Part shown: positions 42,993 through 63,838 of the stretch, piece after piece | How positions within the stretch are numbered: position 1 is the stretch's first letter | Layout of the letters: each line of letters begins with the position of its first letter | Assembly: GCA_040767155.1 (NCBI GenBank) | Contig: JAXGPC010000002.1 | Span: forward strand, 806,863-870,862 | DNA: 64,000 nucleotides | Direction of reading: 5' to 3' | From: Anaerolineae bacterium | GTDB taxonomy: Bacteria > Chloroflexota > Anaerolineae > B4-G1 > SLSP01 | Position numbers and translations under genes: made by a program | The notes under the pieces: model-generated | What the model saw: the letters and a program-made list of their open reading frames with translations, nothing else | Told to the model about the DNA's origin: nothing | The model's database searches: none

Positions 42993-44450
42993 TCAGCCCA
43001 TCTGGACCACAACCGTGTGGTATGCACCCCCAACCGAAACGGGCAGAGTGTTCTTGGCGATCTCCTGACCATCGACCGTGATGGGCCGGATGCCCTTGCT
43101 CACGTGTGATGGATTATGGACCGTGATGTCGTAGGTGGCGCCGCGGAAGCGACGCCGGACGTGGAAACCATCCCAGGTGGAAGGGATACAAGGGTCGATC
43201 CGCAGGCCTTCGTAGGTGGGCTGGATTCCCAGGATGTACTGTGTGCCGGCCTGGTAGGCCCATGAGGCCGTACCCGTGAGCCAACTGCTGCGCTCCAGTC
43301 CGAACTGTGGGTGCTCGTCCGATAGGATATTCTGGCAGTAGACGTAGGGCTCGACCTCGAATTCCTCGATCCGATCGTTGCGGGTTGCCGGGTTGATCTG
43401 GGCGTAGTACTCGAACGCCCGATCGCCCCGTCCCAACATCGTCTCAGCGATCATAGCCCAGGGGTTCGTGTGCAGGAAGATGCCGCAGTTCTCCTTGGTG
43501 CCGGGCGGATAGGTCGTCATACCGCCCTTGTTGGGGTCGAACCCATCATAGCCAGGTGTCGCGGTTTTCAGGCCTCTGCTGGTATTGAGGTGCGCCCGTG
43601 CTGCATCGAGCGCCTGGACGGCGCGCTCCGCGGTGGCGAAGCCCGAGATCACGGCCCAGATCTGGGCGTTAAGGTAGATGCGTCCCTTGTCGTTGCTCGC
43701 AGAGCCCAGGGGTGTGCCATCGCAGTCGAAGTAACGGATATACCAGGTGCCCCCGCCTATGTCGCCGTCCCAGGCAACACGGTTGACCCGCTCGAGCTGT
43801 CGCGCATTCCAAGGCCGCGCGTGCCAAGGCCGGTCTGGTAGACCGAGAGATAACGCGACCAGTCGAGCGTGACGTAGCACTGGCGCGGATTATGCACGTT
43901 GAGCATGGCGTTCATCGCGGGATTAGGCGTCTCGACCTGCATTTGGTCCAGGTAGCTGTTCCAGACCTCGCCGAGGCGAGCGAGGACATCGTCAACGATA
44001 CGGACGTCGCGGTAAGCGTGGATATCGGGCAGGGCCTTCTCGACGCTCGGCGCCTGCCCAAGCTGGGTGATGAGCGTGCGCATCTCACCCGGTTGGAGCG
44101 TTCCGAGGTGGTGAAGCAGGGCTCCGATGTTCTGCCCACGGTGCGCCTCGTAGTTCGCCAGCTCTGCCTGCTGCAGGGCCTCGGGCGCCGCCCATCCGCC
44201 GTAACCGAGGAACCGGTCGCGGTCCGACTCGAAGCTGGCAACGGGCATGTTGGAGGCGAAGTAGTTCTGGCGGATGTCGCGAAACATGAAAGGATACTGG
44301 CAGAGGATGCGAAGGCCCCCAGCTTCATCGATGACGCGGCTGACCATCGTCTGCGGTACCCAGTCGTTGTTGTTGAACTGCTTGATGGCCTCGGGGTGCG
44401 AGTAATCGACAACGGGGATCGCATCGAGCAAGAGCGGCAGGCGTTGCCCT
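42993..44450 (-). pseudogene. GH94 glycoside phosphorylase (cellobiose/chitobiose phosphorylase-like) remnant
   Basis: Upstream piece ends ...WSRYLSVYQTGLGTRGLGMRDSS. It is joined out of frame near 43795 to a C-terminal piece with YLNAQIWAV, YPPGTKENCGIFLH, EPYVYCQ, SWLTGTASW and IDPCIP. The N-terminus and central region are missing. Confidence 0.85.
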
Positions 44451-44555
44451 GCGGCGCAGATGCTGCTACGTTTCACGGCAGCGGCGCCCTGGCCCCTTGC
44501 CCAAGATACTCCGTAGCCAGTCTTTTGGCTACTCAGCACACCAGTTATGGAAGAG

Positions 44556-45167
44556 CTACTCGGCTGCCTCAATCGCCGCGGCGACCGCGAGCGTCAGTCC
44601 CTTGACGATGTTGTCGAGCGACATACTGGGCTGGTTGGGCTTGGTGATCACTTGTTCCGGCAGGAACGGAACGTGGATGAAACCACCGTACATGGTCGGG
44701 TACTTCGTCTCGATCGTGTGGAGCAGGCCATACATCAAGTGGTTGCACACGAAGGTACCTGCACTATTCGAGACTGAGGCAGGCAACCCGCCCTGGCGGA
44801 TCGCGTCGACCATGGCTTTGATCGGTAAGGTGGCGAAGTAGGCGTTCTTTCCGTCCGGATAGATCATCGCATCGACTGGCTGGTTGCCTTCGTTATCGGC
44901 GATCCGCGCGTCGTCGACGTTGATAGCAACGCGCTCGGGCGTGATGTCGAAGCGCCCCCCGGCCTGACCAATGGCGATGGCGATGTCGGGTTTCTCGCGT
45001 TCCAGTGCCGCGTTGAGGACCTCCAGTGCCTTCCGAAAGACGGTGGGGACCTCGACTTTGACGATCGTGGCGCCCGCGATTTCATCAGGCAACAGCTTGA
45101 CGGCCTCGAATGCAGGGTTGATGCTCTCGCCACCGAAGGGGTCGAATGCGGCCATCAGCACTTTCAT
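44556..45167 (-). CDS. pcp: Pyroglutamyl-peptidase I
   Basis: [36 protein letters not shown] (catalytic Cys), GFIHVP. Confidence 0.96.
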
Positions 45168-48706: not shown

Positions 48707-50049
48707 CTAGTGGGTCATTTGACAAGAATGTGTCCATTTCTCGATGATGGTTGGGCGCCGACGGATAGGGCGGTGAGTGCAAGCACCGGAGCCGCCCAGC
48801 GCGTGACGGCGCTGGCGGCTGCGCGCGCGTCGTACAGCCCGTTTCCCGCCCCACTCAAAAGGTGTCGGATGGCGGGCCCAGTGGTCCGCGGTGGCTTCCA
48901 GCCACGCGATGATCTCCTCCGGGGAGTGTGGATCCTGCCCCGCCAGCGCGCGGTGCACGATGATCCGCTGAATCGACTCACTCATGTTCAACCACGACCC
49001 GCTCAGCGGCGTATACAGCGGCATGATGCCATGGGCTACCAGCCACAGCACGAAGTCGGGGGACTTGTGTCCCGTCAGATTGTCCAGGATCAGCAGCACC
49101 CGCAAACGCGGCAGGATCTCCGGCAGCGTGAAATGGACCGTCAGGCCCTCCTGCCAGCGTTCCCACAACTGCCGTTCGTTGCTGGGCTCTGGGATACCCT
49201 CGGGCGCGGGCAGCTCGGCCAGCACGGCACTCAGCTCTTGCTGCAGCCACGGATGCAAGACCCGGTTGGGACACTGCGTCACCCCTTTGGCGCGCAGGTG
49301 TCCGTCTTGAGGATGAAACAGTGTTAGCAACTTGGCCGTCCCTGCACGCACGTACTCCGCTGGCTGCCGTGCAGCTTCCCCTGCGGGCTGCCAAGCCGTC
49401 CCCGGATAGGGGCGGGTCGGATACGGTCCAGCTTGGTCATGACACCATACCTCCAGACCTTGGCTGGCACTTTCGCGATAGGCGCGCTCGATCAAGTTTT
49501 TTTCGCCTCCGCATCGGGATCGCTCACGGTGACCACCCCGCTCTTGCGGCGCCGCTTCACCTGCCCCGTCGCGCACCACGTGCGGCTCTGCTGCCAGGTC
49601 AGCCCCGCTTCATGCAGCACCACCCAGATTGTGTAGGTGCTCACGCCCGGCAGGCCATCCGGCGCCGTGCGCAGCGCGCGCTGCAAACTGCTCAACGACC
49701 ACGTCGCCGTGCCATCCCGTTCGCGGTCGGGAACGCGCCGCGCTTCCTGCAGAATGCGCTCGCGTTGCGCCGCAGTGTAGACCGGGGCGCGCCCCCGGCC
49801 GTGGCGCGGCGCAATCGCCGCCAGCCCTTCCGCGTTGAAGCGGGCCACCAACTGTGCGACCGCATCGTTGGACTGACGCCCCGCGGCGTAGGCTGCACCT
49901 TGGTAGGTCGCGCCGTCCGCCACGGCAAGCAGTATCTTGGCTCGCGCCACGTGGCTGGCCGGCTCACTGCGCGCGCGCGCAATGCTTCCCAATACGCGGC
50001 GCTCCTCTTCCGTCAGTGTTCGCAGAGTATCCTTCCGGTGGCGGGTCAT
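48707..50049 (-). CDS. IS630 transposase, split ORFs joined by a predicted -1 frameshift (~447 aa fusion)
   Basis: OrfA 49492-50049 (RAKILL...GRAP...WSLSSL HTH). OrfB 48707-49579 with CHDQAG / LDNLTGH / WLNMSE. Slippery A7C at 49496-49503. Confidence 0.88.
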
Positions 50050-50141
50050 CGGTGCCTTCCTTCTTGTCTACGCTCGCCCAAGCTCTCGCCACTGTATCAC
50101 CTGCTGCCAAAATAGCTACAGACTTACCAATTGACCCACTA
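48708..50141 (-). mobile_element. IS630-family insertion sequence (1430 bp plus duplicated TA)
   Basis: 17-bp terminal inverted repeats, GTGGGTCATTTGACAAG (48710-26) and CTTACCAATTGACCCAC (50123-39), matching at 14/17. Each is flanked by TA within CTAG. Encodes an HTH ORF and a DDE ORF. Confidence 0.92.
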
Positions 50142-51233
50142 GTCGTTGTGCCTGAAGCTCGTTCGCAGCTCCTGGGTCTCGCCAGTGGAAGCGGCGCGGT
50201 AGCCGGCCTCAATGATGTCGATGACGTGGCGGGCGTGCTCCGCTGTGACGGGCGACGGTGTCCCATCGCGCACCCAATCGACAAGCTGCATCATATCCTC
50301 AAAGACGTGATACTCGCGCATCTGGGTATGGACCCCGCTGACGTGCGGTGGAAAGTCATCGGGTCGCTTGAGGTCTTCATCGCCCAGCTTCGTACCGACG
50401 ATCGCGCCAGCGGTACCATAAAGGTTGGGTTGGAATCCCTGCGTCACCGTGCCTGCAGCCGTTGCGTGGACAAAGGCAAAGAGTGCATCGCCAAAGTCGA
50501 GGAGGAGCACTGTATTGTCATCGATATCGCACGGGATAGGCTTGCCGTGGTAGTTGCGCTCGGCAACGACCAGGCCCGACATAGCAGTGACGCGCTGGGC
50601 CGGACCGAGGATTCCGGTTAGCGTATGCAGGCAGTAGACCGTCACGTCATACTGCGGGCCGCCCCCGGGCTTGCGATAGTACCAGGTCGGGTCAACGTTG
50701 GTCAGGATGTCCTGGCCGGTCCGGAACTCCTCGTTCATATGGTAGGTGCCCACGCCCGCCGTGCCGGTGATGGCCCACACGAGGCGCCCGATCCGCCCGT
50801 CGCGCACAGCCTGGCGGATGCGGCGGTTGTGAGGATAGAGCATCTGTCCCGGCGAGGCCACGACGCGGACGTCGCGCGCAGCGGCTGCTGCGATGATGGC
50901 ATCGGCTTCATCCACCGTCGTCGTCATCGTCTTGTTGAAGTGGACATGCTTACCCGCCTCGATGGCGCGCAGCCCCTGCTCATAGTGCAAGCCGATGGGC
51001 GAGCAGAGCGTCACGGCGTCTACGTTGGGGTCGGCGAGCAACTCCTCGTAGGTCAAGTACCACGACGGGACGCCATAAGTGCGCGCGGCGGCTTCCGCAC
51101 GGCCTGGCACCGGGTCACAGACGGCTGTCACGCGGACGCGGTCTACCACGTCCGGCTGCGTCAAGTGCATGAGAGCGCCGCGGATGCCAATCGCGCCGGT
51201 TCCGACCACGCCCATACCCACAATGGTCTCCAT
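50139..51233 (-). CDS. Gfo/Idh/MocA family oxidoreductase
   Basis: GVVGTGAIG, YEELLADPNVDAV, AGKHVHFNK, WYYRKPGGGPQYD, EHARHVIDII. Start ATG 51233. Confidence 0.9.
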   Translation of the reverse strand: METIVGMGVVGTGAIGIRGALMHLTQPDVVDRVRVTAVCDPVPGRAEAAARTYGVPSWYLTYEELLADPNVDAVTLCSPIGLHYEQGLRAIEAGKHVHFNKTMTTTVDEADAIIAAAAARDVRVVASPGQMLYPHNRRIRQAVRDGRIGRLVWAITGTAGVGTYHMNEEFRTGQDILTNVDPTWYYRKPGGGPQYDVTVYCLHTLTGILGPAQRVTAMSGLVVAERNYHGKPIPCDIDDNTVLLLDFGDALFAFVHATAAGTVTQGFQPNLYGTAGAIVGTKLGDEDLKRPDDFPPHVSGVHTQMREYHVFEDMMQLVDWVRDGTPSPVTAEHARHVIDIIEAGYRAASTGETQELRTSFRHND

Positions 51234-51321
51234 ACCTTTACCTCCTCGCACGCGTGCCTGAACTGGTGGTTGCGTAGCTTGCCAACCACCCATCCCGTGT
51301 GTTTTTGTTCCAGTTCCCTGT

Positions 51322-52215
51322 CTACAGATACTCGCGCCAGCTCGTCGCGTGGTGCCAGCCTACGACGTCCTTGAGACGCTGATTGCTGAGGAAGGAGGCG
51401 TGACCAGGTAGGTCCTGTACCAGATCGAGGTACTCGGGTCGATAGCGCCGGATGAGCTCCAGCGAGGGCTCGAGCGCCGTCGTGTCATCGGCGTTGCAGA
51501 AATACACACCGTGGGGCTCGATGGTATGAGCTTTCTCCATCAGCAGCCGGTGTGCTGAGGCGACGTCTTCGCTGCCGACCCAGGCCCACAGCCACGGGTT
51601 CCAGCCCGAGGCCGGTTCGGCATGGCGGGCCATATCGCGCCGGCGGGCTTCATTGCAGATCCCCGCCGCGCGTATCGCGTAGGTGCGCAGCCCATAGGCA
51701 CGGGTGTAGGAGTCGAGCAGCAGTTCGCCCGCCAGCTTGCTGTAGGAATACGCATCCTCGACGTCCGAGGGGTGGGCCTCATCGACCGGAAAGGCCCGGA
51801 AGGGGAAGGGGCGATCGCTGATACGATAGCCGTGGCCCAGCGCGCAGTTGCTGCCGGTCATCACGAAGGTGCCGACATCGTTGCGTAGTGCCGCCTGTAG
51901 CAGGTAATAGAGGCCCATGATGTTGGTGCGCATCGTCTGGTCGAAGGGGATCCCTCGCTCGACGAACTGCGCGCGAAGCGCCGGATGGTCCGACGGCGAT
52001 GGCTCTGCACCCAGGTGCTGGATCACGTCCACGCCCTGGGCTGCGGCCAGACAATCCTCAAAGGAGTTGAGATCGCCCTGCAGCCAGGGCCATTGCCGGA
52101 GAGCCTCTGCGGGTTCGTGCCTTGAGAACAGCCGCAGCTCGTGGCCCGCCCCGGCCAACTCGCGGACGACGTAGGGGCCCAGCCTGCCGCTGGCGCCCGT
52201 GACGAGAATGCGCAT
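51322..52215 (-). CDS. NAD-dependent epimerase/dehydratase (extended SDR)
   Basis: ILVTGASGRLG and YSYSK catalytic motif; RBS AAAGGAG. Confidence 0.9.
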   Translation of the reverse strand: MRILVTGASGRLGPYVVRELAGAGHELRLFSRHEPAEALRQWPWLQGDLNSFEDCLAAAQGVDVIQHLGAEPSPSDHPALRAQFVERGIPFDQTMRTNIMGLYYLLQAALRNDVGTFVMTGSNCALGHGYRISDRPFPFRAFPVDEAHPSDVEDAYSYSKLAGELLLDSYTRAYGLRTYAIRAAGICNEARRRDMARHAEPASGWNPWLWAWVGSEDVASAHRLLMEKAHTIEPHGVYFCNADDTTALEPSLELIRRYRPEYLDLVQDLPGHASFLSNQRLKDVVGWHHATSWREYL

Positions 52216-52323: not shown

Positions 52324-53478
52324 TTACTGTATCCGCTTCCGGTACGTTCGCCAGCGTTTGTAGATGGTTGCGCCCATATGTTCCGCGATCAGGGGCGTCT
52401 GCGGGTTGTCCTCGGACGTGATCGACAGGTCAATCCACTGGTAGCCCTTGGCGCGTGCGCGCTGGGCCATCGTGTCGAAGAGCAGCGCTGCGACGCCCGT
52501 GCCCCAGTACTCGGGCTTCACCAGGACGCTCTTGATAGCCAGGCACGCCGGCTTATGCCCAAGCCGTGGGCGAATACCCAGATGCCACGCCGCTGCCGCG
52601 TAGTTCCTCGGGTAACGCAGGCCGTTGACGTGGATCAGGGCCTCGTTGAGATTGGGCACACCCGGCAGGAACCCAATGGTCTCCCCATTGGCATCTGCGA
52701 AGAGGATCAGGTCCATATCAGCGATCTCGCGGAATGGGGCAACGAGCGCCTCAACGGCGCTCCGGTGCCAGCCGACGAAGTCCTCCAGATGGGCCAACGC
52801 CGCATTGAGCAGCCCGTGCAAGCGGTCGACCTCGTCGTCCCAGTGATCCAGGTCGGGTCTGCGGATGACGAAGTCCCGATGCCGCCGCACGGCCTCGGCG
52901 AGACGTGCAAGGTGCTGCAGGGCGGGCGTCTGCTCGTGGATGTCGACGGCAAGCGCAATGTTGTCGGGCCGGCCCTTGGTGAAACCCAGGTGCTCCATCA
53001 TCGGCACGTAGTAGGGTGGGGTATGGCCACAGAGGAGTGTTGGAGGGCGGTCGCGCCCCTCGAGTAGAACGCCGTAGGCATCCTCGTAGTCAAGGTTGAA
53101 CGGTCCAAAGAGCACGTCCAGGCCGTGGTCACGCGCCCAGGTGCTGGCTGCGTCGATCAGGGCCTGTGCCACTGCGGGATCATCCACATAATCAAAGAAG
53201 CCGAAGACGCACTCGTGCCGACCGTTCTGCGCATTGGTGAAGCGATCCTCTGCAGCACAAATCGTGCCGACCGGTTCGCCGTCGCGCCACGCAACGAAGA
53301 GGTCGGCGATGCCACGCTTGAAGAAGGCGCCCCGGTCGGGATCGATCGTCTTCGCCCGCTCGGGGAGTAATGGTGGTACCCAGAGCGGATCGTCCCGGAA
53401 GATGCGCCAGGGGAAGGTGAGGAACGTGTGCCGGTCGCGGGCGGTCCGGACCGGGTGGACATCGATCGCTATGGGCAC
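52324..53478 (-). CDS. YghO-like tandem GNAT acyltransferase
   Basis: FPWRIFRDDPLWVPPL, FGFFD, GPFN, HTPPYY, PNLNEAL, VKPEYWGTGV, SEDN, IYKRWRTY. Start placed at GTG 53478 (uncertain). Confidence 0.8.
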   Translation of the reverse strand: MPIAIDVHPVRTARDRHTFLTFPWRIFRDDPLWVPPLLPERAKTIDPDRGAFFKRGIADLFVAWRDGEPVGTICAAEDRFTNAQNGRHECVFGFFDYVDDPAVAQALIDAASTWARDHGLDVLFGPFNLDYEDAYGVLLEGRDRPPTLLCGHTPPYYVPMMEHLGFTKGRPDNIALAVDIHEQTPALQHLARLAEAVRRHRDFVIRRPDLDHWDDEVDRLHGLLNAALAHLEDFVGWHRSAVEALVAPFREIADMDLILFADANGETIGFLPGVPNLNEALIHVNGLRYPRNYAAAAWHLGIRPRLGHKPACLAIKSVLVKPEYWGTGVAALLFDTMAQRARAKGYQWIDLSITSEDNPQTPLIAEHMGATIYKRWRTYRKRIQ

Positions 53479-53618
53479 ACCGCCTGACTGGGTTGCGGAG
53501 CGCGGTATCTGGCAGAGGTGGCACGGTTGAGGGCCCGTGTGGCAACACCAGGCCAGACGTGGCTGGTCCGGAGTGGGCGATGGATGGGTTGGGGCTGCGG
53601 CATCGGTGTTGTGTGCAT
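53469..53618 (-). CDS. Possible 49-aa small ORF overlapping the GNAT start
   Basis: Strong RBS GGGGAGG before ATG 53618; the stop overlaps the GNAT GTG; no recognisable family. Confidence 0.3.
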   Translation of the reverse strand: MHTTPMPQPQPIHRPLRTSHVWPGVATRALNRATSARYRAPQPSQAVCP

Positions 53619-53872
53619 CGGGCCTCCCCGGTTGTGGTCTTCGCGTCGGTGGTGCACCCAGTATACGTCCAGCTTCAAGTCGCACAAGATTCTGTGGCTG
53701 CCAGCGAAGCCTGGCGCCCTCGACGCCTCAGGTCGATGAGGCAACGTGCTGGGTGCACTCGCACCGAATGGTCGAGGCGGCAGCCTAGGCAGCGACCGTT
53801 TTCGATGTAGAATGCCTGAGGCGGCAGGACGAGAGCGCCCGTCGCGCCATTCCCACACGGAGACAGACAGCC

Positions 53873-55504
53873 ATGCAGACCCTGGACCTCACGAACATCA
53901 CGACCTATCCCATCGCCCAGCGGCGCAACCTCGTGCACCTCGGTGATTTGATCTCACCCGAAGCGCCGCCGCCTGATTTTGACTCCGAGGAGTTGCCTCG
54001 CGTCGCCGATGCGGTTGTTGCGGCGCGTCGCGCAGAACGTCCCGTCGTCTGGATGATGGGGGCGCATGTGGTCAAGAGCGGGCTGTCGCGCCTGGTCATC
54101 GACCTGATGGCGCGCGGGTTCATCACGCATGTGGCGGGCAACGGCGCCGTGTCAATCCACGATGTCGAGCTCGCGCTGATCGGTGCGACCAGCGAGGATG
54201 TCGCCACGAGCCTGGAGGATGGCACCTTCGGGATGGCTGACGAGACTGGGCGCTACATGCACCAGGCTCTGCGCGAGGGTGTTCGTGACGGTCTGGGCTA
54301 TGGGGCGTCGATCGGGCGCTTCATGGATGGCCATCCCGAGTTCTTCCCGTACCGCGAGGTCTCGATCCTCTGGAACGCGTACCGGTTGGGGATTCCCGCT
54401 ACAATCCACGTGACCATCGGGACCGATATCATCCACCAACACCCGGCTGCTGACTTCACGGTGCTCGGTACGGCAAGTGGGCGTGATTTCCTCTCCTTCT
54501 GTACATCGCTGAGCGACCTTGAGGGCGGTGTATTCCTGAACTTCGGCTCCGCTGTCACCGGTCCTGAGGTCTTTCTCAAGGCGCTGACGATTGTGCGGAA
54601 TCTCGGGTACACGGTAGCACGCATCACCACGGCGAACTTCGACCTCATCTCGTTGGGATCTGACTATCACAGCAAGATCGGCTACGCGGATCCGCTCTAC
54701 TACTACCGCCCGCGTAAGAACATCGTCAACCGTCCTGCCTCGCTCGGTGGGGTGGGGTACCACATCACGGGCGATCACGTCGTCACGATCCCCAATCTCC
54801 ACCATCGCGTGGTGGAGGCGCTGGGTAGCGTTCCTGTGGCGGTTCGGCAGGCGACGGCTGCGCCGGTCAGTGGAGCCGCGCAGCGCGTGCTGGACGACCT
54901 GTTGGACAGGCATCCGGAGCTCGAGACCCTCCGCACCGATCTCGTCCGTGCCTATGCCGAGTTCGCCCGCTGCTTTCGCAGTGGAGGCACACTCTATCTC
55001 TGCGGCAACGGCGGGAGTATGGCCGATGCGCTGCACATCTCGGGCGAGCTGCTCAAGTCCTATGCGCATCCTCGGGCGCTGCCAGAATCGCTAGCCCGCG
55101 GCCTGGCGGAGCAGCCCGATGGCAAGCTCTTGCTACGCAGCCTCGAGGGGGGGCTGAGGGCCGTTGTGCTCGGCGCGAACGTCGCGCTTGCCAGTGCCGT
55201 GGCCAACGATCGGCCCGACCGCGATGTCGGGTTGGCCCAGGAGCTTGCGACACTGGCCCGACCTGGCGATGTGCTGCTTGCGATCAGCACGAGCGGCAAC
55301 GCGCGCAACGTTGCTTACGCCATGCAGGTGGCACGGGCGACCGGCGTCACAACGGTAGGCTTGACGGGCGCCGGTGGCGGTCGTCTCGCGGGCCTCGCCG
55401 ACATCGTTGTGCGCGTGCCGGCCGAGCGCACCGACCGCATCCAGGAGCTACACGTACTCTGCTACCATGCGCTCTGCGAGATGCTCGAAGTGGCGCTGTT
55501 CTGA
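53873..55504 (+). CDS. Fusion: deoxyhypusine-synthase-like (GSU2086-type) domain + GmhA-like SIS phosphosugar isomerase
   Basis: N-part MGAHVVK, NGAVSIHD, TSEDV, FGMADETG, IGTDIIHQHP, NFGSAVTGPEVFLKAL. C-part CGNGGSMADALHISGEL, GDVLLAISTSGN, GLTG, TDRIQELH. Confidence 0.85.
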   Translation: MQTLDLTNITTYPIAQRRNLVHLGDLISPEAPPPDFDSEELPRVADAVVAARRAERPVVWMMGAHVVKSGLSRLVIDLMARGFITHVAGNGAVSIHDVELALIGATSEDVATSLEDGTFGMADETGRYMHQALREGVRDGLGYGASIGRFMDGHPEFFPYREVSILWNAYRLGIPATIHVTIGTDIIHQHPAADFTVLGTASGRDFLSFCTSLSDLEGGVFLNFGSAVTGPEVFLKALTIVRNLGYTVARITTANFDLISLGSDYHSKIGYADPLYYYRPRKNIVNRPASLGGVGYHITGDHVVTIPNLHHRVVEALGSVPVAVRQATAAPVSGAAQRVLDDLLDRHPELETLRTDLVRAYAEFARCFRSGGTLYLCGNGGSMADALHISGELLKSYAHPRALPESLARGLAEQPDGKLLLRSLEGGLRAVVLGANVALASAVANDRPDRDVGLAQELATLARPGDVLLAISTSGNARNVAYAMQVARATGVTTVGLTGAGGGRLAGLADIVVRVPAERTDRIQELHVLCYHALCEMLEVALF

Positions 55505-55519
55505 ACGTTGGACGGGCAC

Positions 55520-55560
55520 GCGATCAGAATCGGGCGATCAGAATCGGGCGATCAGAATCG
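55520..55560. repeat. 14-bp perfect tandem repeat (~2.9 copies)
   Basis: GCGATCAGAATCGG x2 + GCGATCAGAATCG, intergenic inside the operon. Confidence 0.92.
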
Positions 55561-55605
55561 ACGCAGAGGGCGAACACGACGGTTCGCCCCACGGACTGAG
55601 GACCT

Positions 55606-56655
55606 ATGTGTCTTGCTGAATGCCTTTCGGCTTCGCGACTGACGGAGTTGCTCCAGCGCGCGCAGACGGCCAGGGTGGGCGTCATGGGCGATCTGGCGCT
55701 GGACGGCTACTGGACTGCCGACATGACGCGGTCGTTGCTCTCACGGGAGACGCCGCGTTTCCCGCGGCCCATCGTGAACGAGCGCTATGCTCCCGGTGCC
55801 GGCGGCAACGTCGCCCAGAACCTTAGCGCCCTGGGCGTGGCGGAGGTTCACGCCTTTTCGGTGCTGGGAGAGGACTGGCGTGGCGAGATCCTGCGGCGTG
55901 AGTTGGCGGCCCGCTCGGTCGCGGTGGCGGCCTGTCTCCGGTCGGCGCGACGCAGCACGCCGACCTATATCAAGCCGGTGCTTGTGGGGTACGAGGCACA
56001 GCAAGAGGATTCGCGCCTCGACTTCGAGAACCCTGAACCACTGGACCGGGACCTGGAGGATGCGCTGATCGCCGAGGTGGCGTCGGCAGTCGGTCAGCTC
56101 GATGCGCTCGTAGTAGCCGACCAGTTTGAGGTCAACGGCGTGGTCACCGATCGCGTCCGCGAGGCGCTGATTGCGATGGCCCAGGAACACGCCCGGACTG
56201 TTTTCGTCGTCGACTCCCGCCGGCGCATTGCGGACTTCCGAGGAATGGTGCTCAAACCTAACTGGGTCGAGGCGACCCGCGCGCTCGACCCGCAGGGCAA
56301 GCCACGAAGTGACACTCCATGCCTGGACGAGGTCGGTGTCGTGGCACGTGCCCTTTCCGAGCAGGCCCGGCGACCGGTTTGTGTGACACTTGGGGGTGCA
56401 GGGGCGTTCGTGTGGGACGGCGGGCCTGTCTTCGTACCCGCGGCGCCCGTCCGTCCACCCCTTGATCCTGTCGGTGCCGGTGATGCGTTCGTGGCTGCGC
56501 TGGCGACGGGCCTGGGCTGTGGTGCCACGCCTCGAGAGGCTGCGGCGTTCGCCAACCTTGCTGCCGCCGTGACGGTGGAGAAGCTGGGCGAGACGGGAAC
56601 GGCAACGCCGGATGAGATCCGGGCCCGCTACGCGCTCGCAGAGGCGATGCGATGA
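55606..56655 (+). CDS. PfkB-family carbohydrate kinase, HldE/RfaE kinase-domain-like
   Basis: VGVMGDLALDGY, SRETP, PGAGGNVAQNL, VVDSR, KPNWVE, DPVGAGDAF, ANLAAAVTVEKLG. Confidence 0.87.
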   Translation: MCLAECLSASRLTELLQRAQTARVGVMGDLALDGYWTADMTRSLLSRETPRFPRPIVNERYAPGAGGNVAQNLSALGVAEVHAFSVLGEDWRGEILRRELAARSVAVAACLRSARRSTPTYIKPVLVGYEAQQEDSRLDFENPEPLDRDLEDALIAEVASAVGQLDALVVADQFEVNGVVTDRVREALIAMAQEHARTVFVVDSRRRIADFRGMVLKPNWVEATRALDPQGKPRSDTPCLDEVGVVARALSEQARRPVCVTLGGAGAFVWDGGPVFVPAAPVRPPLDPVGAGDAFVAALATGLGCGATPREAAAFANLAAAVTVEKLGETGTATPDEIRARYALAEAMR

Positions 56656-57524
56656 GCGGCTTCAGGGATGCTGGCTCCCTCCTTGGTGGCCTGGAGTGGG
56701 TAGAGGTTGCCAATCCCGGGGCGCGGTTGGGTGCCGTTCGTCACGCTGTCTTCGACTTCGATGGAACCCTCTCCGTCATCCGTCGTGGGTGGGAACAGGT
56801 GATGATTCCCCTGATGGTCGAGATGATCTGCGATGGCCGTCCGGCCCCGGCGGGACTCGAAGGCGAGGTCGCCGACTACGTCGACCGCTCGACCGGCATC
56901 CTGACCATCAAGCAGATGATGTGGCTCGAGTCGGCGGTGCGGCGCTATGGGCTGGCGGCGGCGCCTCTGACGGCGCGAGCGTATAAGAAGATCTACAACG
57001 AACGGCTGCTCGGACCTGTGCGCCGGCGCCTGGCCCAGCTCGATGGCAGCCAAGAAGCGCGCGACGCGCTCGCCGTTGCCGGGGCCCGTAGCTTCGTTCA
57101 GGCGCTCGACGATCGGGGTGTTGTTCTCTACCTGGCCAGTGGCACCGACCATGGCTATGTGGTCGAGGAGGCAGAGGCGCTCGGGATTGCTTCTCACTTC
57201 GAGGGGCGGATCTACGGCGCGATGGACGACACCGAGGCCTACTCCAAGGAGCGCATCATCGCACGCATTCTGGCCGACCATGGTCTCGAAGGCGAGGCGT
57301 TGCTTGTCGTGGGCGATGGCCCTGTCGAGATCCGGCACGCCAGGGAGCACGGTGCCGTCGCCCTGGGTGTCGCAGTGGACGAGGATCGTCGTCAGGGGCT
57401 GAACCGTCGCAAGCGCGAACGGCTGCTGGCGGCGGGGGCCGATCTGATCGTGACCGATTTCCTGCACTACGGTGCGTTGGCTGAGGCACTCTGCAGCGCG
57501 GCTGTAGGGGCACATACCGACTGA
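56652..57524 (+). CDS. HAD-superfamily hydrolase
   Basis: FDFDGTLS (motif I), LASGT (II), SK (III), VGDGPVE (IV); ATGA coupling. Confidence 0.88.
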   Translation: MSGFRDAGSLLGGLEWVEVANPGARLGAVRHAVFDFDGTLSVIRRGWEQVMIPLMVEMICDGRPAPAGLEGEVADYVDRSTGILTIKQMMWLESAVRRYGLAAAPLTARAYKKIYNERLLGPVRRRLAQLDGSQEARDALAVAGARSFVQALDDRGVVLYLASGTDHGYVVEEAEALGIASHFEGRIYGAMDDTEAYSKERIIARILADHGLEGEALLVVGDGPVEIRHAREHGAVALGVAVDEDRRQGLNRRKRERLLAAGADLIVTDFLHYGALAEALCSAAVGAHTD

Positions 57525-57537
57525 AACGGGAGGAGCG

Positions 57538-59592
57538 ATGGCCACCAAGACCGTACACGTAGTCTTCAAGACACACCTCGATGTGGGATTCACCGACCTT
57601 GCGGCAAATGTCGTGAGGCAGTACTTTGAGTCGTTCATCCCGGGTGCCTTGGCCTTGGCTGAGACTATGCGCGAGAACTCGTCTGGCAGCCGCTTCGTCT
57701 GGACGACGGGCTCGTGGCTCATCTATGAGTACCTGGAGCAGGCGGGGCCAGCCGAGCGCAGACGCATGGACAAAGCGATCGCAATGGGGGATATCGCGTG
57801 GCATGCGCTGCCTTTCACCACGGCGTCCGAGGGAATGAGCGCTGACCTTTTCCGGTTCGGCCTGTCGCTCAGCCGGCGCCTCGACGCCCGGTATGGACGT
57901 AAGACGATCGCTGCCAAAATGACCGATGTGCCGGGCCACACGCGGGCGATTGTGCCACTCCTGGCGGAGGCCGGCGTGCGTTTCCTGCACATCGGCGTCA
58001 ATCCGGCCTCGTCGGCTCCGGACGTTCCCCCCGCCTTTGTGTGGCGCTCGCCTGAGGGGGCCGAGATCGTCGTGCTTTACTCGGCGGGCAGCTATGGCAC
58101 ACTGCATGTGGTTGAGGGGCTGGAAGACGTCCTCTTCCTCGCGCACACCAACGACAACCTGGGGCCACCGCCCGTCGACCACATCGTCGCGATTTTCGAG
58201 CAGATGGCGGCGCAATTCCCCGGTGCCGAGGTCCGGGCATCGACCCTTGATGCTTTTGCCCGGGCGATTTGGCCCGCGCGGGCTGCACTCCCTGTCGTCA
58301 CAGCCGAACTGGGCGACACCTGGGTCTACGGCCTGGGCTCGGATCCGCACAAGGTGTCGCAGTACCGCGAGCTCCTGCGGTTGCGTGAGCGGTGGCTGGC
58401 CGGGGGTGTCGAGCCTGAGAGCCTGGATGTGTTCACGCGGCACCTGCTTCTGATCCCGGAGCACACCTGGGGGCTCGACGAGAAGACCCATCTGGGCGAC
58501 TATGTGGCCTATGCGCCCGCAGACCTCGCGCGCGCCCGGGCGCAGGACGTTGTCGGCGAGGATGTCATTCCTCCAGAGCTGGAAGCCTTCGCCCGCTTCG
58601 TGAAGCCTGGCAACACGTACAGCCACTTCGCATCTTCGTGGCAGGAACAACGCGCCTACATCACCAGGGCCGTCGCGAGCCTCGACGCCGCGAGGCACGA
58701 CGAAGCGCAAGCGGCCCTTGATGCGCTCGTGCCCGCTGTGCCATCGCGCGAAGGTTATGCCGCGTTCGACCCGACCGCCCCCCTCGACGCCTCGGCCTAC
58801 ACGGTCGCGGTCGATCCGGCAACGGGTAGCATCGTCCGTCTCGATGACAAGGTTCGGGGCAACGCGTGGGCCACGCGCGAGCACACGATCGGGCTGTTCA
58901 GGTATGAGAGCTTCGGGCAGGAGGATTACGACCGCTGGATGCGCGACTACGCCATCAATCTCGATCTGCACGGACTTTGGGCCCATGCGGACTACGTTAA
59001 GCCAGGCATCGATGCGGTGCGCCCGCGCCCCGAGCACCGGTTCTACGCGCCCGACCTGGTCTGGGCCGGCTTCAAGAGGGACGGCGATGCGCTGGACGTG
59101 CTCCTCGAGTTGCGGATGCCCGGCGCCTGCGTGGAGGTCCTGGGGGCGCCCCGCAGAGCGACTGTTGAGTATCGCTTCCTGAGCGACCGCATCGAGGTCC
59201 GTCTCCAGTGGTTCGACAAGCAGGCGACGCGGTTACCGGAGGCGCTATGGTTCTCGTTCAATCCCGTGATCGGTGATCCGGAGGGTTGGAAGCTCGACAA
59301 GATGGGCCAGTGGGTCTCACCTCTGGAAGTCGTGCGTGGCGGCGGGCGTTTCTTACACGCCGTGCAGAGCGGTGCCCGCGTTGAGGATGAGGATGGTACG
59401 GTGTCCTTCGCCTTCGAGAGCCTGGATGCACCGCTCGTCGCCCCTGGTCTGCCGCGGCTGCTTCACGCCGACGACGTCCAGCCGCAACTCGCCTACGGGA
59501 TGCACGTGCTCCTGTACGACAACCTATGGGGGACGAACTTCCCGATGTGGTATGAAGAGGATGCCGCGTTCAGATTCGTGCTGCGTTTCTAG
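57538..59592 (+). CDS. DUF5054-like protein (GH38/GH57-type N-terminal barrel; putative glycosidase)
   Basis: VFKTHLDVGFTD, FVWTTGSW, WHALPF, MTDVPGH, ELGDTW, EHTWG, RLPEALWFSF, NLWGTNFPMW. Confidence 0.78.
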   Translation: MATKTVHVVFKTHLDVGFTDLAANVVRQYFESFIPGALALAETMRENSSGSRFVWTTGSWLIYEYLEQAGPAERRRMDKAIAMGDIAWHALPFTTASEGMSADLFRFGLSLSRRLDARYGRKTIAAKMTDVPGHTRAIVPLLAEAGVRFLHIGVNPASSAPDVPPAFVWRSPEGAEIVVLYSAGSYGTLHVVEGLEDVLFLAHTNDNLGPPPVDHIVAIFEQMAAQFPGAEVRASTLDAFARAIWPARAALPVVTAELGDTWVYGLGSDPHKVSQYRELLRLRERWLAGGVEPESLDVFTRHLLLIPEHTWGLDEKTHLGDYVAYAPADLARARAQDVVGEDVIPPELEAFARFVKPGNTYSHFASSWQEQRAYITRAVASLDAARHDEAQAALDALVPAVPSREGYAAFDPTAPLDASAYTVAVDPATGSIVRLDDKVRGNAWATREHTIGLFRYESFGQEDYDRWMRDYAINLDLHGLWAHADYVKPGIDAVRPRPEHRFYAPDLVWAGFKRDGDALDVLLELRMPGACVEVLGAPRRATVEYRFLSDRIEVRLQWFDKQATRLPEALWFSFNPVIGDPEGWKLDKMGQWVSPLEVVRGGGRFLHAVQSGARVEDEDGTVSFAFESLDAPLVAPGLPRLLHADDVQPQLAYGMHVLLYDNLWGTNFPMWYEEDAAFRFVLRF

Positions 59593-62421: not shown

Positions 62422-62587
62422 AGTTCCCTCCTGCCCAAGGGACTGACGGAGTGCAAACGATCGTTGGGTGTGCAGTGTCGGTGTGGCAATGAACGATGGG
62501 GACAGTTCCTTCTAACCTTAGAATAGCACAGCGTCAGTCTCATGTCAAATTAGCCGAGGTCGTCGCCATGCCACACCACCACGCGTG

Positions 62588-62616
62588 TTGTGTGCACCGT
62601 GTGACCGTGGTATAGT
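62588..62616 (+). promoter_or_regulatory. Putative promoter for GH130-xylA
   Basis: TTGTGT-17 nt-TATAGT with a TG extension (TGGTATAGT). Confidence 0.5.
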
Positions 62617-62653
62617 CGCAGTGGAAATCGGCGCGACCAAAGGAGTGACGCCT

Positions 62654-63838
62654 ATGCCACGACCGGCACCTTCGGCAGTCCTGCAGCGGCTCCGGGCGGA
62701 GCACGAAGCACTCATCACCCGGCCCAACCGGGTCGATCGGAACTGGAGCAACGGACTCTTCGAGCGCTACGAAAACCCAATCCTCACTGCGGCTCACACG
62801 CCCCTCGACTGGCGCTATGACTTCGACCCTACGACCAATCCCTATATGATGGAACGGATGGGCATCAACGGTGTCTTCAACGCCGGGGCGATGGCCTGGA
62901 ATGGGAAGATCGTGCTGGTCTGCCGCGTTGAGGGCTACGACCGCAAGTCGTTTTTCGCCGTTGCTGAGAGCACGAGCGGTGTCGACGGATTCCGGTTCTG
63001 GGATCGTCCCCTGGTGATGCCCGAGACCGAGAACCCCGACGTCAACGTCTACGACATGCGACTTACGGAGCACGAGGACGGCTGGATCTATGGCGTCTTC
63101 TGCACAGAGCGCAAGGACCCCGTCGCGCCGCCCGGCGACATGAGCAGTGCTGTGGCCCAGGCTGGCATCGCGCGGACGCACGACTTGGTTGTCTGGGAGC
63201 GGCTCGATGACCTGGTCACGTCCTCGCCGCAGCAGCGCAACGTCGTCCTGCACCCGGAGTTTGTGCATGAGAAGTACGCGTTCTACACGCGGCCCCAGGA
63301 CGATTTCATCCAGGCGGGGAGTGGCGGCGGCATCGCGTTTGGACTCGCGGATGACATCGAGCATGCCGTCGTTTTCGAGGAGACTGTCATCGATCCCCGG
63401 GCCTATCACACGATCAAGGAGCTCAAGAACGGCGCCGGCGCAACCCCGATCAAGACGCCCGAGGGGTGGCTGCATATCGCGCACGGCGTTCGCGCATGCG
63501 CCGCTGGCCTGCGCTATGTGCTCTATGCCTTCTTGTGCGATCTGGACGACCCTGCCAGGGTGCTCTATCGTCCGGGGGGGTACCTGATGGCGCCAGTTGG
63601 GGACGAGCGCACCGGCGACGTCTCCAACGTCCTCTTCTGCAACGGTGCAGCCGCCTTACCCGACGGCACGCTCTTCGTTTACTACGCCTCGTCCGACACG
63701 CGGATGCACGTCGCGACGACGACGATCGACAGAATGCTGGATTATGTGAGGAATACGCCGCCCGACGGCGGGCGCTCAGCTACCTCCGTTGCCCAGCGTC
63801 TCGCGCTCATCGAGCGCAACTGCGCGCTCATATCGTGA
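62654..63838 (+). CDS. GH130 4-O-beta-D-mannosyl-D-glucose phosphorylase-like
   Basis: [78 protein letters not shown] 62654 behind AAGGAG. Confidence 0.92.

Follow-up and report, generated by a model that had tools for sequence, protein, structure and literature searches.

A widespread variant of the heptose pathway centered on the uncharacterized GSU2086 family with the deoxyhypusine synthase fold

Introduction

What does a bacterium that apparently makes no lipopolysaccharide (LPS) do with enzymes resembling those of heptose synthesis? This question is raised by four consecutive genes in a 64,000-nucleotide stretch of an Anaerolineae genome (contig JAXGPC010000002.1, positions 806,863 to 870,862)—hereafter called the “window”. 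They encode, in this order, a fusion of a GSU2086 family domain with a GmhA-like SIS isomerase domain, a PfkB-family sugar kinase, a haloacid dehalogenase (HAD) enzyme, and a DUF5054 protein. An earlier note on this DNA had read them as a possible route of heptose or rare-sugar salvage, with a domain like deoxyhypusine synthase (DHS) adding an NAD-dependent step. Here, we report that this locus belongs to a variant of the heptose pathway that is widespread and centered on an uncharacterized family with the DHS fold.

The ADP-heptose pathway, which is regarded as complete, is a target for antibiotic adjuvants, and its intermediates heptose bisphosphate (HBP) and ADP-heptose are agonists of innate immunity. 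A widespread extra enzyme family would change both the annotation and the targeting of heptose metabolism. The GSU2086 family comprises 461 representative clusters (50% identity, E ≤ 1e-30) and occurs in 119 of 201 Planctomycetota genomes. The family apparently takes the place of HldD, the ADP-heptose 6-epimerase, and in LPS-less bacteria, it is the defining member of a nucleotide-free heptose-phosphate module as well. As the earlier note had supposed, the set is not already characterized, in that no paper on it was found in the literature searched. A functional study of the GSU2086 family was not found there either; the one paper carrying the name has it in a table of transposon sequencing (Tn-seq) results (PMC5585712).

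Results

Gene 1 joins a GSU2086 domain to a GmhA-like isomerase domain

Residues 4–311 of the gene 1 product match the NCBIfam family NF052581, “GSU2086 family” (cut-off 250 bits, score 399, over model positions 2–300 of 301; 400.7 bits in the whole-genome search). After a linker, residues ~355–543 constitute a GmhA-like SIS isomerase domain. The GmhA model TIGR00441 reaches 119.5 bits, below its equivalog cut-off of 209.45, in two stretches split by an insertion of ~26 residues in the SIS part. This part aligns over its full length with solved GmhA structures (E 5e-28 for 5by2 and 1.3e-27 for 1x92), and it keeps the GmhA motif blocks GNGGS..DA.H...EL, ISTSGN, and RIQE.H....H, which are invariant in 22 fusion homologues and whose residues we take to be catalytic and zinc-binding. 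A search with the fusion protein retrieved 7857 proteins at E ≤ 0.001. The best 120 of these are 508–605 amino acids long, at least 61% identical, and equipped with SIS Pfam domains, and those with a named source come from Anaerolineae or Chloroflexi bins.

To which fold does the GSU2086 domain belong? By sequence, the comparison with solved structures revealed no relative beyond a 65-residue block, at profile positions 56–120 of the family alignment, in common with AgrE/ArgZ and 3c2q. The Pfam model PF01916 (DS) had no match on the gene 1 protein at E ≤ 0.001, and the GSU2086 profile reached solved DHS chains with E 0.023–0.028 at best. The AlphaFold2 model of residues 1–320, built on an alignment of 83 diverse homologues (pLDDT 96.3), falls into the group formed by DHS, the AgrE C-domain, and LOR-SDH (Z 17.4–20.6; Foldseek probability 1.00). 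VIA-align gave Z scores of 20.6 for AgrE (6lrf), 19.4 for DHS (8put; 265 residues, rmsd 3.9), and 18.9 for 3c2q. The next tier, at Z ~9–12, comprises SIS domains, sirtuins, middle domains of thiamine diphosphate enzymes, and transhydrogenase dIII. The “DHS-like” label that the earlier note gave to the N-terminal domain is thus borne out by the fold, without a PF01916 sequence match.

GSU2086 shares this fold group with DHS, the ornithine cyclodeaminase C-domain of AgrE/ArgZ, and the LOR-SDH protein 3c2q at 9–16% identity. These relatives are NAD-using catalytic enzymes, and the modeled fold suggests an NAD-type cofactor for GSU2086. The known members of the fold act on amines (spermidine, ornithine), whereas all of the genomic associations of GSU2086 are with sugar-phosphate enzymes. 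A sugar-phosphate role, if true, would be the first for the DHS fold. Conservation reaches 90% or more in about 45 alignment columns of the 83 diverse members, and His, Asp, Glu, Arg, or Lys occupies many of these columns. A full-length comparison of the window's domain with a GSU2086 protein from a Planctomycete heptose operon gives 41% identity, and all of the motif blocks are kept. This identity, together with the conserved columns, makes the same chemistry likely in the window and in the Planctomycete protein.

GSU2086 and HldD are complementary in Planctomycetota

HldD works by transient oxidation with a bound nicotinamide cofactor, and such chemistry is plausible for GSU2086 also. The two folds are unrelated, as HldD (TIGR02197) is a short-chain dehydrogenase/reductase (SDR) and GSU2086 has the DHS fold. 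Their distributions are complementary. In a sample of 201 genomes of Planctomycetota, the phylum of one of the surveyed loci (L057; labels beginning with L, G, and P denote loci, genomes, and proteins, respectively), GSU2086 was matched in 119 genomes at E ≤ 1e-40 (115 over cut-off), HldD in 51 at E ≤ 1e-55 (44 over cut-off), and HldC in 183 at E ≤ 1e-35 (148 over cut-off). Among the 183 HldC-positive genomes, 108 have GSU2086 only, 43 HldD only, seven both, and 25 neither, which corresponds to an odds ratio of 0.038 and a Fisher p of 4e-17 that is overstated by the non-independence of kin genomes. The 18 HldC-negative genomes divide into three with GSU2086 only, none with HldD only, one with both, and 14 with neither, and the respective figures for all 201 are 111, 43, eight, and 39. 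One genome with both (G435) carries an in-frame stop in HldD.

Is this displacement confined to HldD? GmhB-like genes occur in 88 of the 111 GSU2086-only genomes and in 35 of the 43 HldD-only genomes. As GmhB is equally common with either protein, the displacement is specific to HldD. The same equality, together with a gmhB gene adjoining GSU2086 in L104, rules out GSU2086 as a replacement of GmhB.

The two proteins also occupy the same place in operons. According to coordinates read by eye, at least 58 genomes have GSU2086 and an HldC domain within 3 kb of each other on one contig, and at least eight have HldD and an HldC domain so placed. We annotated six fetched Planctomycetota regions. The order is gmhB-GSU2086-hldE in L104 (genome G327) and lpxL-lpxL-GSU2086-hldE in L106 (G418). 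In L105 (G423), lpxL is followed at some distance by hldE, with the GSU2086 match immediately upstream by coordinates and an rfaP-like gene nearby. In the other three regions, the order is hldD-gmhB-gmhA-hldE (L107, G433), hldD-hldE (L108, G481), and hldD next to an hldE placed by coordinates (L109, G311). The slot directly upstream of hldE is therefore filled by GSU2086 in some Planctomycetota genomes and by hldD in others. Distribution and position together fit the pattern of a non-orthologous displacement of HldD by GSU2086, which accords with a fold whose known members carry out transient oxidations with NAD. The near mutual exclusion and the shared operon position lend indirect support to the earlier proposal of an NAD-type epimerization by the DHS-like domain. 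This evidence of complementarity and operon position is new here; among the matches listed for literature on HldD or heptose in Planctomycetes, there was no alternative epimerase, and searches for HldD in Geobacter heptose literature and for a link between DHS and heptose found nothing.

A comparable arrangement exists outside Planctomycetota. In Geobacter sulfurreducens, GSU2086 lies between hldE (GSU2085) and gmhA (GSU2087), and in a Tn-seq experiment on electrodes, GSU2086 had a defect of −3.2, similar to the −3.1 and −3.7 of hldE and gmhA, with polar effects possible (PMC5585712). The presence of GSU2086 in these plainly biosynthetic hldE/LPS operons of Planctomycetota and Geobacter shows that the family is not intrinsically catabolic, as the salvage idea of the earlier note might have implied. 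Outside Planctomycetota, all seven HldC- or HldE-positive GSU2086 genomes tested (five in the sample of the window's phylum described below and two of Clostridia) are without HldD over cut-off. In L083 and L091, the loci of the two Clostridia, GSU2086 is accompanied by gmhA, hldE, and a GT9-like gene.

The window's genome has the module without the rest of the heptose pathway

Does the operon feed a canonical heptose pathway encoded elsewhere in the same genome? The assembly of the window's genome (G000) has 4.2 Mb and is 94.6% complete with 2.9% contamination. In it, the best HldC match has 56 bits against a cut-off of 181.5 and the best HldD match 124 bits against 274.6, no second GmhA is over cut-off, and neither a GT9 heptosyltransferase nor LpxC is matched. 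The lack of HldC, HldD, GT9, and LpxC argues that the module feeds neither ADP-heptose nor LPS, and with no second GmhA either, a supply to a canonical pathway elsewhere is ruled out for this genome. The search for an HldC-type nucleotidyltransferase, which the earlier note had named as a way to check its reading, thus leaves a canonical pathway elsewhere without support, and the LPS-less host presumed there agrees with the lack of LpxC and GT9 matches.

We noted one unusual 380-residue open reading frame (ORF) in this genome (contig C23, positions 394036–395178; 1495–2637 in the fetched region L002). Its N-terminus carries half of a cytidylyltransferase-like domain, a stretch at the other end is like the C-terminus of fucokinase/guanylyltransferase, and an SDR gene lies 3 kb away.

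Six further module genomes (G081, G153, G276, G003, G004, and G005) are without an HldC-like match of at least 100 bits; the first three and G003 have no match at all, and the best match has 53 bits in G005 and 20 bits in G004. In a sample of 301 genomes of the window's phylum, nine have GSU2086 over cut-off; the two genomes of the sample that are flagged as unpublished (G043 and G232) are not among them. Four of the nine (G000, G081, G153, and G276) lack an HldC-like match of at least 100 bits. The other five have an HldC-like gene at 145–184 bits, all with GT9 and none with HldD over cut-off.

What do these genomes imply about the substrate? GSU2086 keeps working in HldC-less genomes and is present where no ADP-heptose can be made, and it therefore probably acts on a heptose phosphate rather than on a nucleotide sugar. 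The frequent fusion with SIS suggests the 7-phosphate as substrate. In the best-supported placement, GSU2086 would act before, or without, nucleotide activation.

Two further candidates were tried with the same genomes. LarC is present in 16 of the 19 GSU2086 genomes tested, a count made with no matched background set, and is missing from G081, G153, and G005. Since G081 is a single contig, 99% complete, with two GSU2086 copies, an obligatory nickel-pincer cofactor is not supported. Class I ManA is over cut-off in four of the seven module genomes tested (G081, G276, G003, and G005), and the weaker ManA-like ORFs of G000, G153, and G004 do not reach it. This does not support the idea that the cell has the SIS domain as its sole phosphomannose isomerase.

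The conserved unit is GSU2086, kinase, and HAD, often with SIS

Which of the four genes travel together? In a survey with one genome per prokaryote species, 491 stretches encode a relative; we took the best 80 of these, of which 79 are distinct, and counted partners within 6 kb of the GSU2086 domain. A kinase homologue is present in 55 of the 79 loci, a HAD homologue in 44, and both in 42. A SIS homologue of any kind occurs in 47 loci and is fused to GSU2086 in 41. Among the 38 loci with at least 3.5 kb on both sides, the kinase is found in 25, HAD in 24, and both in 22. The records are titled Chloroflexota, Planctomycetota, Bacillota/Clostridia, and Bacteroidota/Bacteroidales, with one Bathyarchaeota bin. 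DUF5054 is near the module in three of the 79 loci (L016–L018), so that all four genes as a conserved unit are ruled out; the counts indicate a unit of GSU2086, kinase, and HAD, often with SIS. The co-occurrence anticipated by the earlier note therefore holds for the first three genes, with or without the SIS domain, and fails for the fourth. In L016, whose fusion protein is 76% identical to that of the window, the kinase gene is missing and two short HAD fragments precede DUF5054 (11650–12300); the module there is decaying.

Some loci depart from this composition. L084 and L086–L088 (Clostridiaceae/Clostridia/Bacillota) have an MFS_2 transporter and a GNAT-like gene divergent from a CE7 acetyl esterase (AXE1), GSU2086, and a GH-like protein of ~660–680 residues, which in L084 has a weak Glyco_hydro_42M match. 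This context fits none of the readings proposed below. Counted within 8 kb, a relative of the GNAT-like gene upstream of the window's operon is present in nine of the 79 loci, including these four, at 25–28% identity. Such GNAT proteins of ~380–390 residues, often beside an MFS_2 symporter, recur by GSU2086 in Chloroflexota and Clostridia loci. Two GSU2086 copies occur in some Anaerolineae (L038, Ornatilinea apprima; L058, an Anaerolineaceae bin; G081 and G153): one is a GSU2086-SIS fusion, and the other is a standalone GSU2086, 43–45% identical, flanked by its own HAD and kinase genes. In L038, a CUT1 sugar ABC transporter separates the two copies, and a ROK regulator follows downstream. Cultured carriers among the loci are O. 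apprima P3M-1 (L038) and Caldicoprobacter algeriensis TH7C1 (L064).

A HMMER search with the GSU2086 domain against 1.84 billion representatives of clusters at 50% identity yielded 2309 matches at E ≤ 0.001, 1538 at 1e-10, and 461 at 1e-30. The majority, ~300–340 residues long, stand alone. Among 150 listed representatives, we scanned 25 of odd length with Pfam. The fused partners are a PfkB kinase in one (P0124), a whole HldE in one (P0251), HAD in three (P0127, P0156, and P0253), SIS in either order in four (P0200, P0211, P0233, and P0145), a cytidylyltransferase-like domain in six (P0262, P0198, P0153, P0178, P0184, and P0212), and such a domain plus an ARMT1 phosphatase in two (P0138 and P0250). 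One protein is fused to the N- and C-terminal domains of GH38 (P0126), echoing the glycosidase neighbors described below, and another to a RyR domain (P0254). Six of the 25 have no recognizable partner domain, among them P0122 (679 residues), a tandem duplication of GSU2086. NCBIfam assigned all seven that were analyzed, of the nine proteins with a cytidylyltransferase-like domain, to the HldC type, and three fusions reach the HldC equivalog cut-off (P0153 with 199 bits, P0184 with 203, and P0251 with 181.8). The fusion partners thus tie the GSU2086 family to every step of heptose-nucleotide synthesis.

In a FastTree phylogeny of 207 GSU2086 domain sequences, a deep split (support 97) has most of the HldC and HldE fusions on one side and the window's clade (55 rows) on the other. 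Members of this clade are SIS-fused or adjoin a kinase or HAD gene, except for six loci with neither in reach. A clean division into biosynthetic and catabolic clades is only partly seen, in that some HldC fusions, as well as the HldE- and GT9-linked L083 and L091, fall on the window's side.

The kinase resembles HldA, while the HAD enzyme is not of the GmhB type

Gene 2 encodes a PfkB-family sugar kinase (PF00294, 108.9 bits). Its best family is the HldE kinase domain (TIGR02198), whose cut-off of 345 bits its score of 158.6 does not reach; its closest solved relative is HldA (4e84, E 1.8e-13), and with a bona fide Planctomycete HldE, it shares 30% identity. By these comparisons, it is a distant relative of the heptose-7-phosphate kinase HldA or HldE domain I. 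The resemblance of the set to the heptose pathway, as claimed in the earlier note, therefore stands, GmhA and HldA being the solved proteins closest to its isomerase and kinase.

Gene 3 encodes a HAD protein (PF00702, 53.3 bits) with weak NCBIfam matches of the HAD-IA/phosphoglycolate phosphatase kind. Motif I is DFDGT (DFDG at residues 34–37), followed by a cap insertion of ~120 residues. The GmhB models (TIGR00213, HAD-IIIA) are not among the NCBIfam matches at E ≤ 0.01, the only match of the HAD-III class is a faint one to HAD-IIIC (E 0.0054), and no solved structure was matched by sequence at E ≤ 0.01. In comparison, the bona fide GmhB of the Planctomycete locus L104 has 181 residues and the DRDG motif; this one example accords with the earlier remark that the window's enzyme lacks the GmhB signature. 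From its sequence, gene 3 appears to encode a capped HAD phosphohydrolase or phosphomutase, not GmhB.

Gene 4 encodes a predicted GH38-like protein

The gene 4 product matches PF16477 (DUF5054) at residues 267–551 with 234 bits, against a cut-off of 37.6. The first 32 Foldseek matches in the PDB listed for its AlphaFold2 model (pLDDT 92.3) are all GH38 alpha-mannosidases (including 7ufs, 7ufr, and 2wyi), with TMq 0.51–0.62, E down to 5.7e-24, and identities of 10–13%. Thus, the overall multi-domain fold resembles that of GH38 enzymes such as Bifidobacterium longum Man38A–C and Streptococcus pyogenes GH38 (TMq ~0.6), in 684 residues as opposed to the 830–1180 of GH38 alpha-mannosidases. GH38 Pfam domains had no match on gene 4 at E ≤ 0.001, and PF01074 is present on many DUF5054 homologues in precomputed domain lists. 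Among DUF5054 proteins, an N-terminal H-x-D and a central D-x-x-G-H motif are invariant, and they may resemble the metal and nucleophile motifs of GH38. The model suggests that gene 4 encodes a compact, distant GH38-like glycoside hydrolase. DUF5054 is single-copy in the window's genome, and no mention of it was found in the literature searched.

HldC-less modules lie in apparent sugar-utilization loci

In which direction does the module run? From −7 to +8 kb of the GSU2086 gene, we grouped the ORFs into clusters and ran Pfam on representatives. The recurrent neighbors include GH38 alpha-mannosidases (seven loci, four of them Pfam-confirmed), MFS_2 glycoside symporters (eight loci), CUT2-type ABC permeases (seven) with binding proteins, and CUT1 ABC systems (about five). 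Regulators of the ROK (six loci) and LacI (five) types recur, as do GH130 (in the window, L018, and L028), GH4 (three), AGE-family epimerases (two), aldose 1-epimerase, DUF4432, BNR/sialidase-like and DHDPS-like genes, and GFO/IDH/MocA and SDR oxidoreductases. The neighborhoods of HldC-less modules look like sugar-utilization loci, and this circumstantial evidence favors import and degradation. Among the matches listed in the literature searched, nothing relevant to heptose catabolism or salvage appeared.

Discussion

Proposed pathway

The window's module shares with the ADP-heptose pathway a GmhA-like isomerase, an HldA-like kinase, an enzyme of a phosphatase superfamily, and a presumed epimerization. 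It differs in several respects. The adenylyltransferase, the heptosyltransferase, HldD, and the lipid A synthesis gene are absent from the window's genome. The HAD enzyme is capped and has DFDG, whereas the canonical GmhB is capless, ~180 residues long, and has DRDG; the kinase and the isomerase are far below the HldE and GmhA equivalog cut-offs; and the epimerase candidate has the DHS fold instead of the SDR fold. Moreover, unlike the ADP-heptose pathway, the module lies in a context of sugar import and degradation.

On this basis, we favor a nucleotide-free heptose-phosphate route, in which GSU2086 would be an HldD-like 6-epimerase and which would probably serve salvage or catabolism towards sedoheptulose-7-phosphate. 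Through the module, a heptose of manno configuration (or a close analogue), either imported or released by a glycosidase, would be connected to sedoheptulose-7-phosphate. The co-transcribed GH38-like DUF5054 protein may be a lineage-specific glycosidase that releases the sugar. GSU2086 would be the counterpart of HldD, interconverting the D-glycero and L-glycero forms of manno-heptose by transient oxidation, and the fused GmhA-like domain would act as the sedoheptulose-7-phosphate/heptose-7-phosphate isomerase. We are highly confident that the module is real and does not feed LPS. Epimerization by GSU2086, proposed by analogy with HldD, has an even chance in our estimation, and the catabolic direction of the window's module seems to us just as evenly balanced. 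For the route as a whole, we put the chances slightly below even.

What weighs against this proposal? One difficulty lies with genes 2 and 3: in a catabolic route, the kinase and the HAD enzyme go unexplained, as this pair forms the middle of the biosynthetic order (7-phosphate to 1,7-bisphosphate to 1-phosphate). One might speculate about an anomeric kinase with a beta-phosphoglucomutase-like HAD mutase, or, equally speculatively, about an ATP-driven transfer from the 1-phosphate to the 7-phosphate after a phosphorylase. DUF5054 stands outside the conserved module, being near it in three of 79 loci, and the recurrent glycosidase neighbors (GH38, GH130, and DUF5054) all belong to mannose-active families, in none of which do we know of a heptosidase. 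L084 and L086–L088 hold GSU2086 with no kinase or HAD within 6 kb. The window's assembly is 94.6% complete, and the 380-residue ORF of contig C23 may, judging from its domains, be an unrecognized nucleotidyltransferase or an unusual sugar-1-phosphate activating enzyme. The NAD binding by GSU2086 is a prediction from the modeled fold. Finally, the complementarity with HldD was drawn from related genomes, whose kinship makes the Fisher p too strong, and seven or eight genomes with both genes as well as 25 HldC-positive genomes with neither stand beside it. The anticorrelation could reflect a different heptose stereochemistry or a different last step.

Alternative explanations

The operon could instead be biosynthetic, making heptose 1-phosphate (D,D or L,D) from sedoheptulose-7-phosphate in the canonical order plus an epimerase, for a glycoconjugate other than LPS (an S-layer or cell-wall glycan, for example); an unrecognized nucleotidyltransferase or a phosphorylase-type transferase would then complete the route, and the GH38-like gene would be an unrelated neighbor. 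Isomerase, kinase, and HAD enzyme are exactly the biosynthetic steps. The trio of GSU2086, kinase, and HAD co-exists in the Planctomycetota loci L057 and L048 with an HldC elsewhere in the genome—which makes it compatible with biosynthesis and counts against our proposal—and L083 and L091 in Clostridia join GSU2086 to GmhA, HldE, and a GT9-like gene. The C23 ORF with its partial cytidylyltransferase-like domain could be the missing enzyme, and a GH130-type phosphorylase, a user of sugar 1-phosphates, is encoded 3 kb downstream of the operon. We nevertheless consider this explanation unlikely: no HldC, GT9, or HldD is over cut-off in the window's genome, the six other module genomes likewise lack an HldC-like match of at least 100 bits, the HAD enzyme is not of the GmhB type, and the neighbors are mostly importers, glycosidases, and LacI/ROK regulators rather than glycosyltransferases or export genes. 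Alternatively, the sugar could be a hexose. The GmhA-like domain would then interconvert mannose-6-phosphate and fructose-6-phosphate, GSU2086 would epimerize or oxidize a hexose phosphate, and the kinase and HAD enzyme would handle mannose, mannose-1-phosphate, or mannose-1,6-bisphosphate from GH38, DUF5054, or GH130. The mannose-active glycosidase neighbors (GH38 at seven loci, GH130, and DUF5054), the AGE-family epimerases, the fusion of GSU2086 to GH38 domains in P0126, and scores of kinase, isomerase, and HAD enzyme well below the heptose equivalog cut-offs all agree with such a role. However, ManA over cut-off in four of the seven module genomes, with weaker ManA-like ORFs in the other three, means that an extra phosphomannose isomerase is not obviously needed. 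In addition, family members 41% identical to the window's domain lie in hldE/gmhB/lpxL operons, the domains fused to GSU2086 in P0153 and P0184 exceed the cut-off for heptose-1-phosphate adenylyltransferases, and among solved structures, the isomerase and the kinase come closest to GmhA and HldA, respectively. The mannose alternative is thereby weakened, and we accord it a low probability.

Even if the pathway concerns heptose, GSU2086 need not be an epimerase. Other conceivable roles in heptose-phosphate metabolism are those of a regulatory or scaffolding subunit, an enzyme with the nickel-pincer cofactor, or the maker of a further heptose derivative, and the anticorrelation with HldD would then reflect the lineage-specific use of a different heptose product. 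In 25 of the 183 HldC-positive Planctomycetota genomes, neither GSU2086 nor HldD is present, which means that an epimerase is not obligatory. L084 and L086–L088 pair GSU2086 with a CE7 esterase and with GH-like, GNAT-like, and MFS transporter genes, in place of a kinase and HAD, and LarC accompanies GSU2086 in 16 of 19 genomes. On the other hand, LarC is missing from G081, G153, and G005, the fold group consists of catalytic NAD enzymes, the conserved columns rich in His, Asp, Glu, Arg, and Lys fit an active site, and GSU2086 takes the same operon position as hldD. A role other than epimerization consequently strikes us as quite improbable.

A broader form of our proposal can be stated, in which GSU2086 is a class of DHS-fold heptose-phosphate 6-epimerases that replaces HldD in the LPS pathway of most Planctomycetota, of Geobacter, and of others, and, together with a dedicated kinase, a HAD mutase or phosphatase, and a GmhA-like isomerase, serves a catabolic route for LPS heptose in LPS-less bacteria. 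Organisms like this Anaerolineae bacterium and gut or rumen Clostridia would scavenge L-glycero-D-manno-heptose from the LPS cores of other bacteria, release it with GH38-like enzymes such as DUF5054, and funnel it to sedoheptulose-7-phosphate. In this full breadth, the proposal is doubtful. If catabolic, the module would be the first degradation route for heptose, recycling the LPS-derived sugar, and it would be relevant to necromass turnover and to the removal of heptose pathogen-associated molecular patterns in guts.

Layout of the locus and other features of the window

The earlier description of four co-directional, tightly packed genes is accurate, with all four ORFs found at exactly the positions given in Table 1. 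Genes 2 and 3 share an ATGA overlap, and 13 nucleotides, containing GGAGG, separate genes 3 and 4; the overlap and the length of this gap had been remarked on before and are seen in the sequence. The domain calls of the four genes include no nucleotidyltransferase or glycosyltransferase, again in line with the earlier description. The spacer from gene 1 to gene 2 measures 101 nucleotides and houses a tandem repeat whose unit, GCGATCAGAATCGG, is found nowhere else in the window; two matches of the unit occurred in 0 of 100 shuffles. The repeat might be a candidate operator or attenuator. A single promoter-like site lies 60 nucleotides upstream of gene 1, where the scan found one against 0.8 expected from shuffles.

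Table 1. Positions of the operon genes and neighboring features in the window
Feature	Position	Strand	Remarks
Gene 1, GSU2086-SIS fusion, 543 residues	53873–55504	+	ORF at exactly this position
Gene 2, PfkB kinase, 349 residues	55606–56655	+	ORF at exactly this position
Gene 3, HAD enzyme, 290 residues	56652–57524	+	ORF at exactly this position
Gene 4, DUF5054 protein, 684 residues	57538–59592	+	ORF at exactly this position
Tandem repeat, 14-nucleotide unit GCGATCAGAATCGG, 2.9 copies, 100% match	55520–55560	+	Inside the spacer between genes 1 and 2
GNAT-domain protein	52324–53685	−	PF00583, 48.2 bits, residues 306–430; divergent from the operon
SDR	51322–52215	−	Pfam
GFO/IDH/MocA oxidoreductase	50139–51293	−	Pfam
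DDE_3 transposase	48707–49579	−	Pfam; between the xylulokinase gene and the GFO/IDH/MocA and SDR pair
GH130-like mannoside phosphorylase	62585–63838	+	PF04041, 77.2 bits; weak beta-1,2-mannobiose phosphorylase matches

The atlas clusters related to the GNAT gene are GNAT proteins of 379–392 residues, and since family members usually have ~380–390 residues, its true start may lie downstream. The GFO/IDH/MocA and SDR pair, which in the window is upstream of the operon and beside the transposase gene, is found in L016–L018 downstream of the operon and co-directional with it, at 69–83% identity (tblastn). This difference, with the transposase adjoining, suggests a transposon-associated rearrangement in the window. 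The GH130-like gene clusters with ORFs near GSU2086 in L018 and L028.

Other sugar genes in the window are those for the xylulokinase and a GH10 protein. A GH94 gene of the cellobiose/chitobiose phosphorylase type is split on the minus strand into two overlapping ORFs (43757–44572 and 42993–43880); most of the family length is missing, and it is probably a frameshifted or truncated pseudogene. A long minus-strand ORF at 62540–63484 is probably the antisense shadow of the GH130-like gene, and the minus-strand ORF at 56628–57722 is the same kind of shadow over the HAD gene, longer than the real gene.

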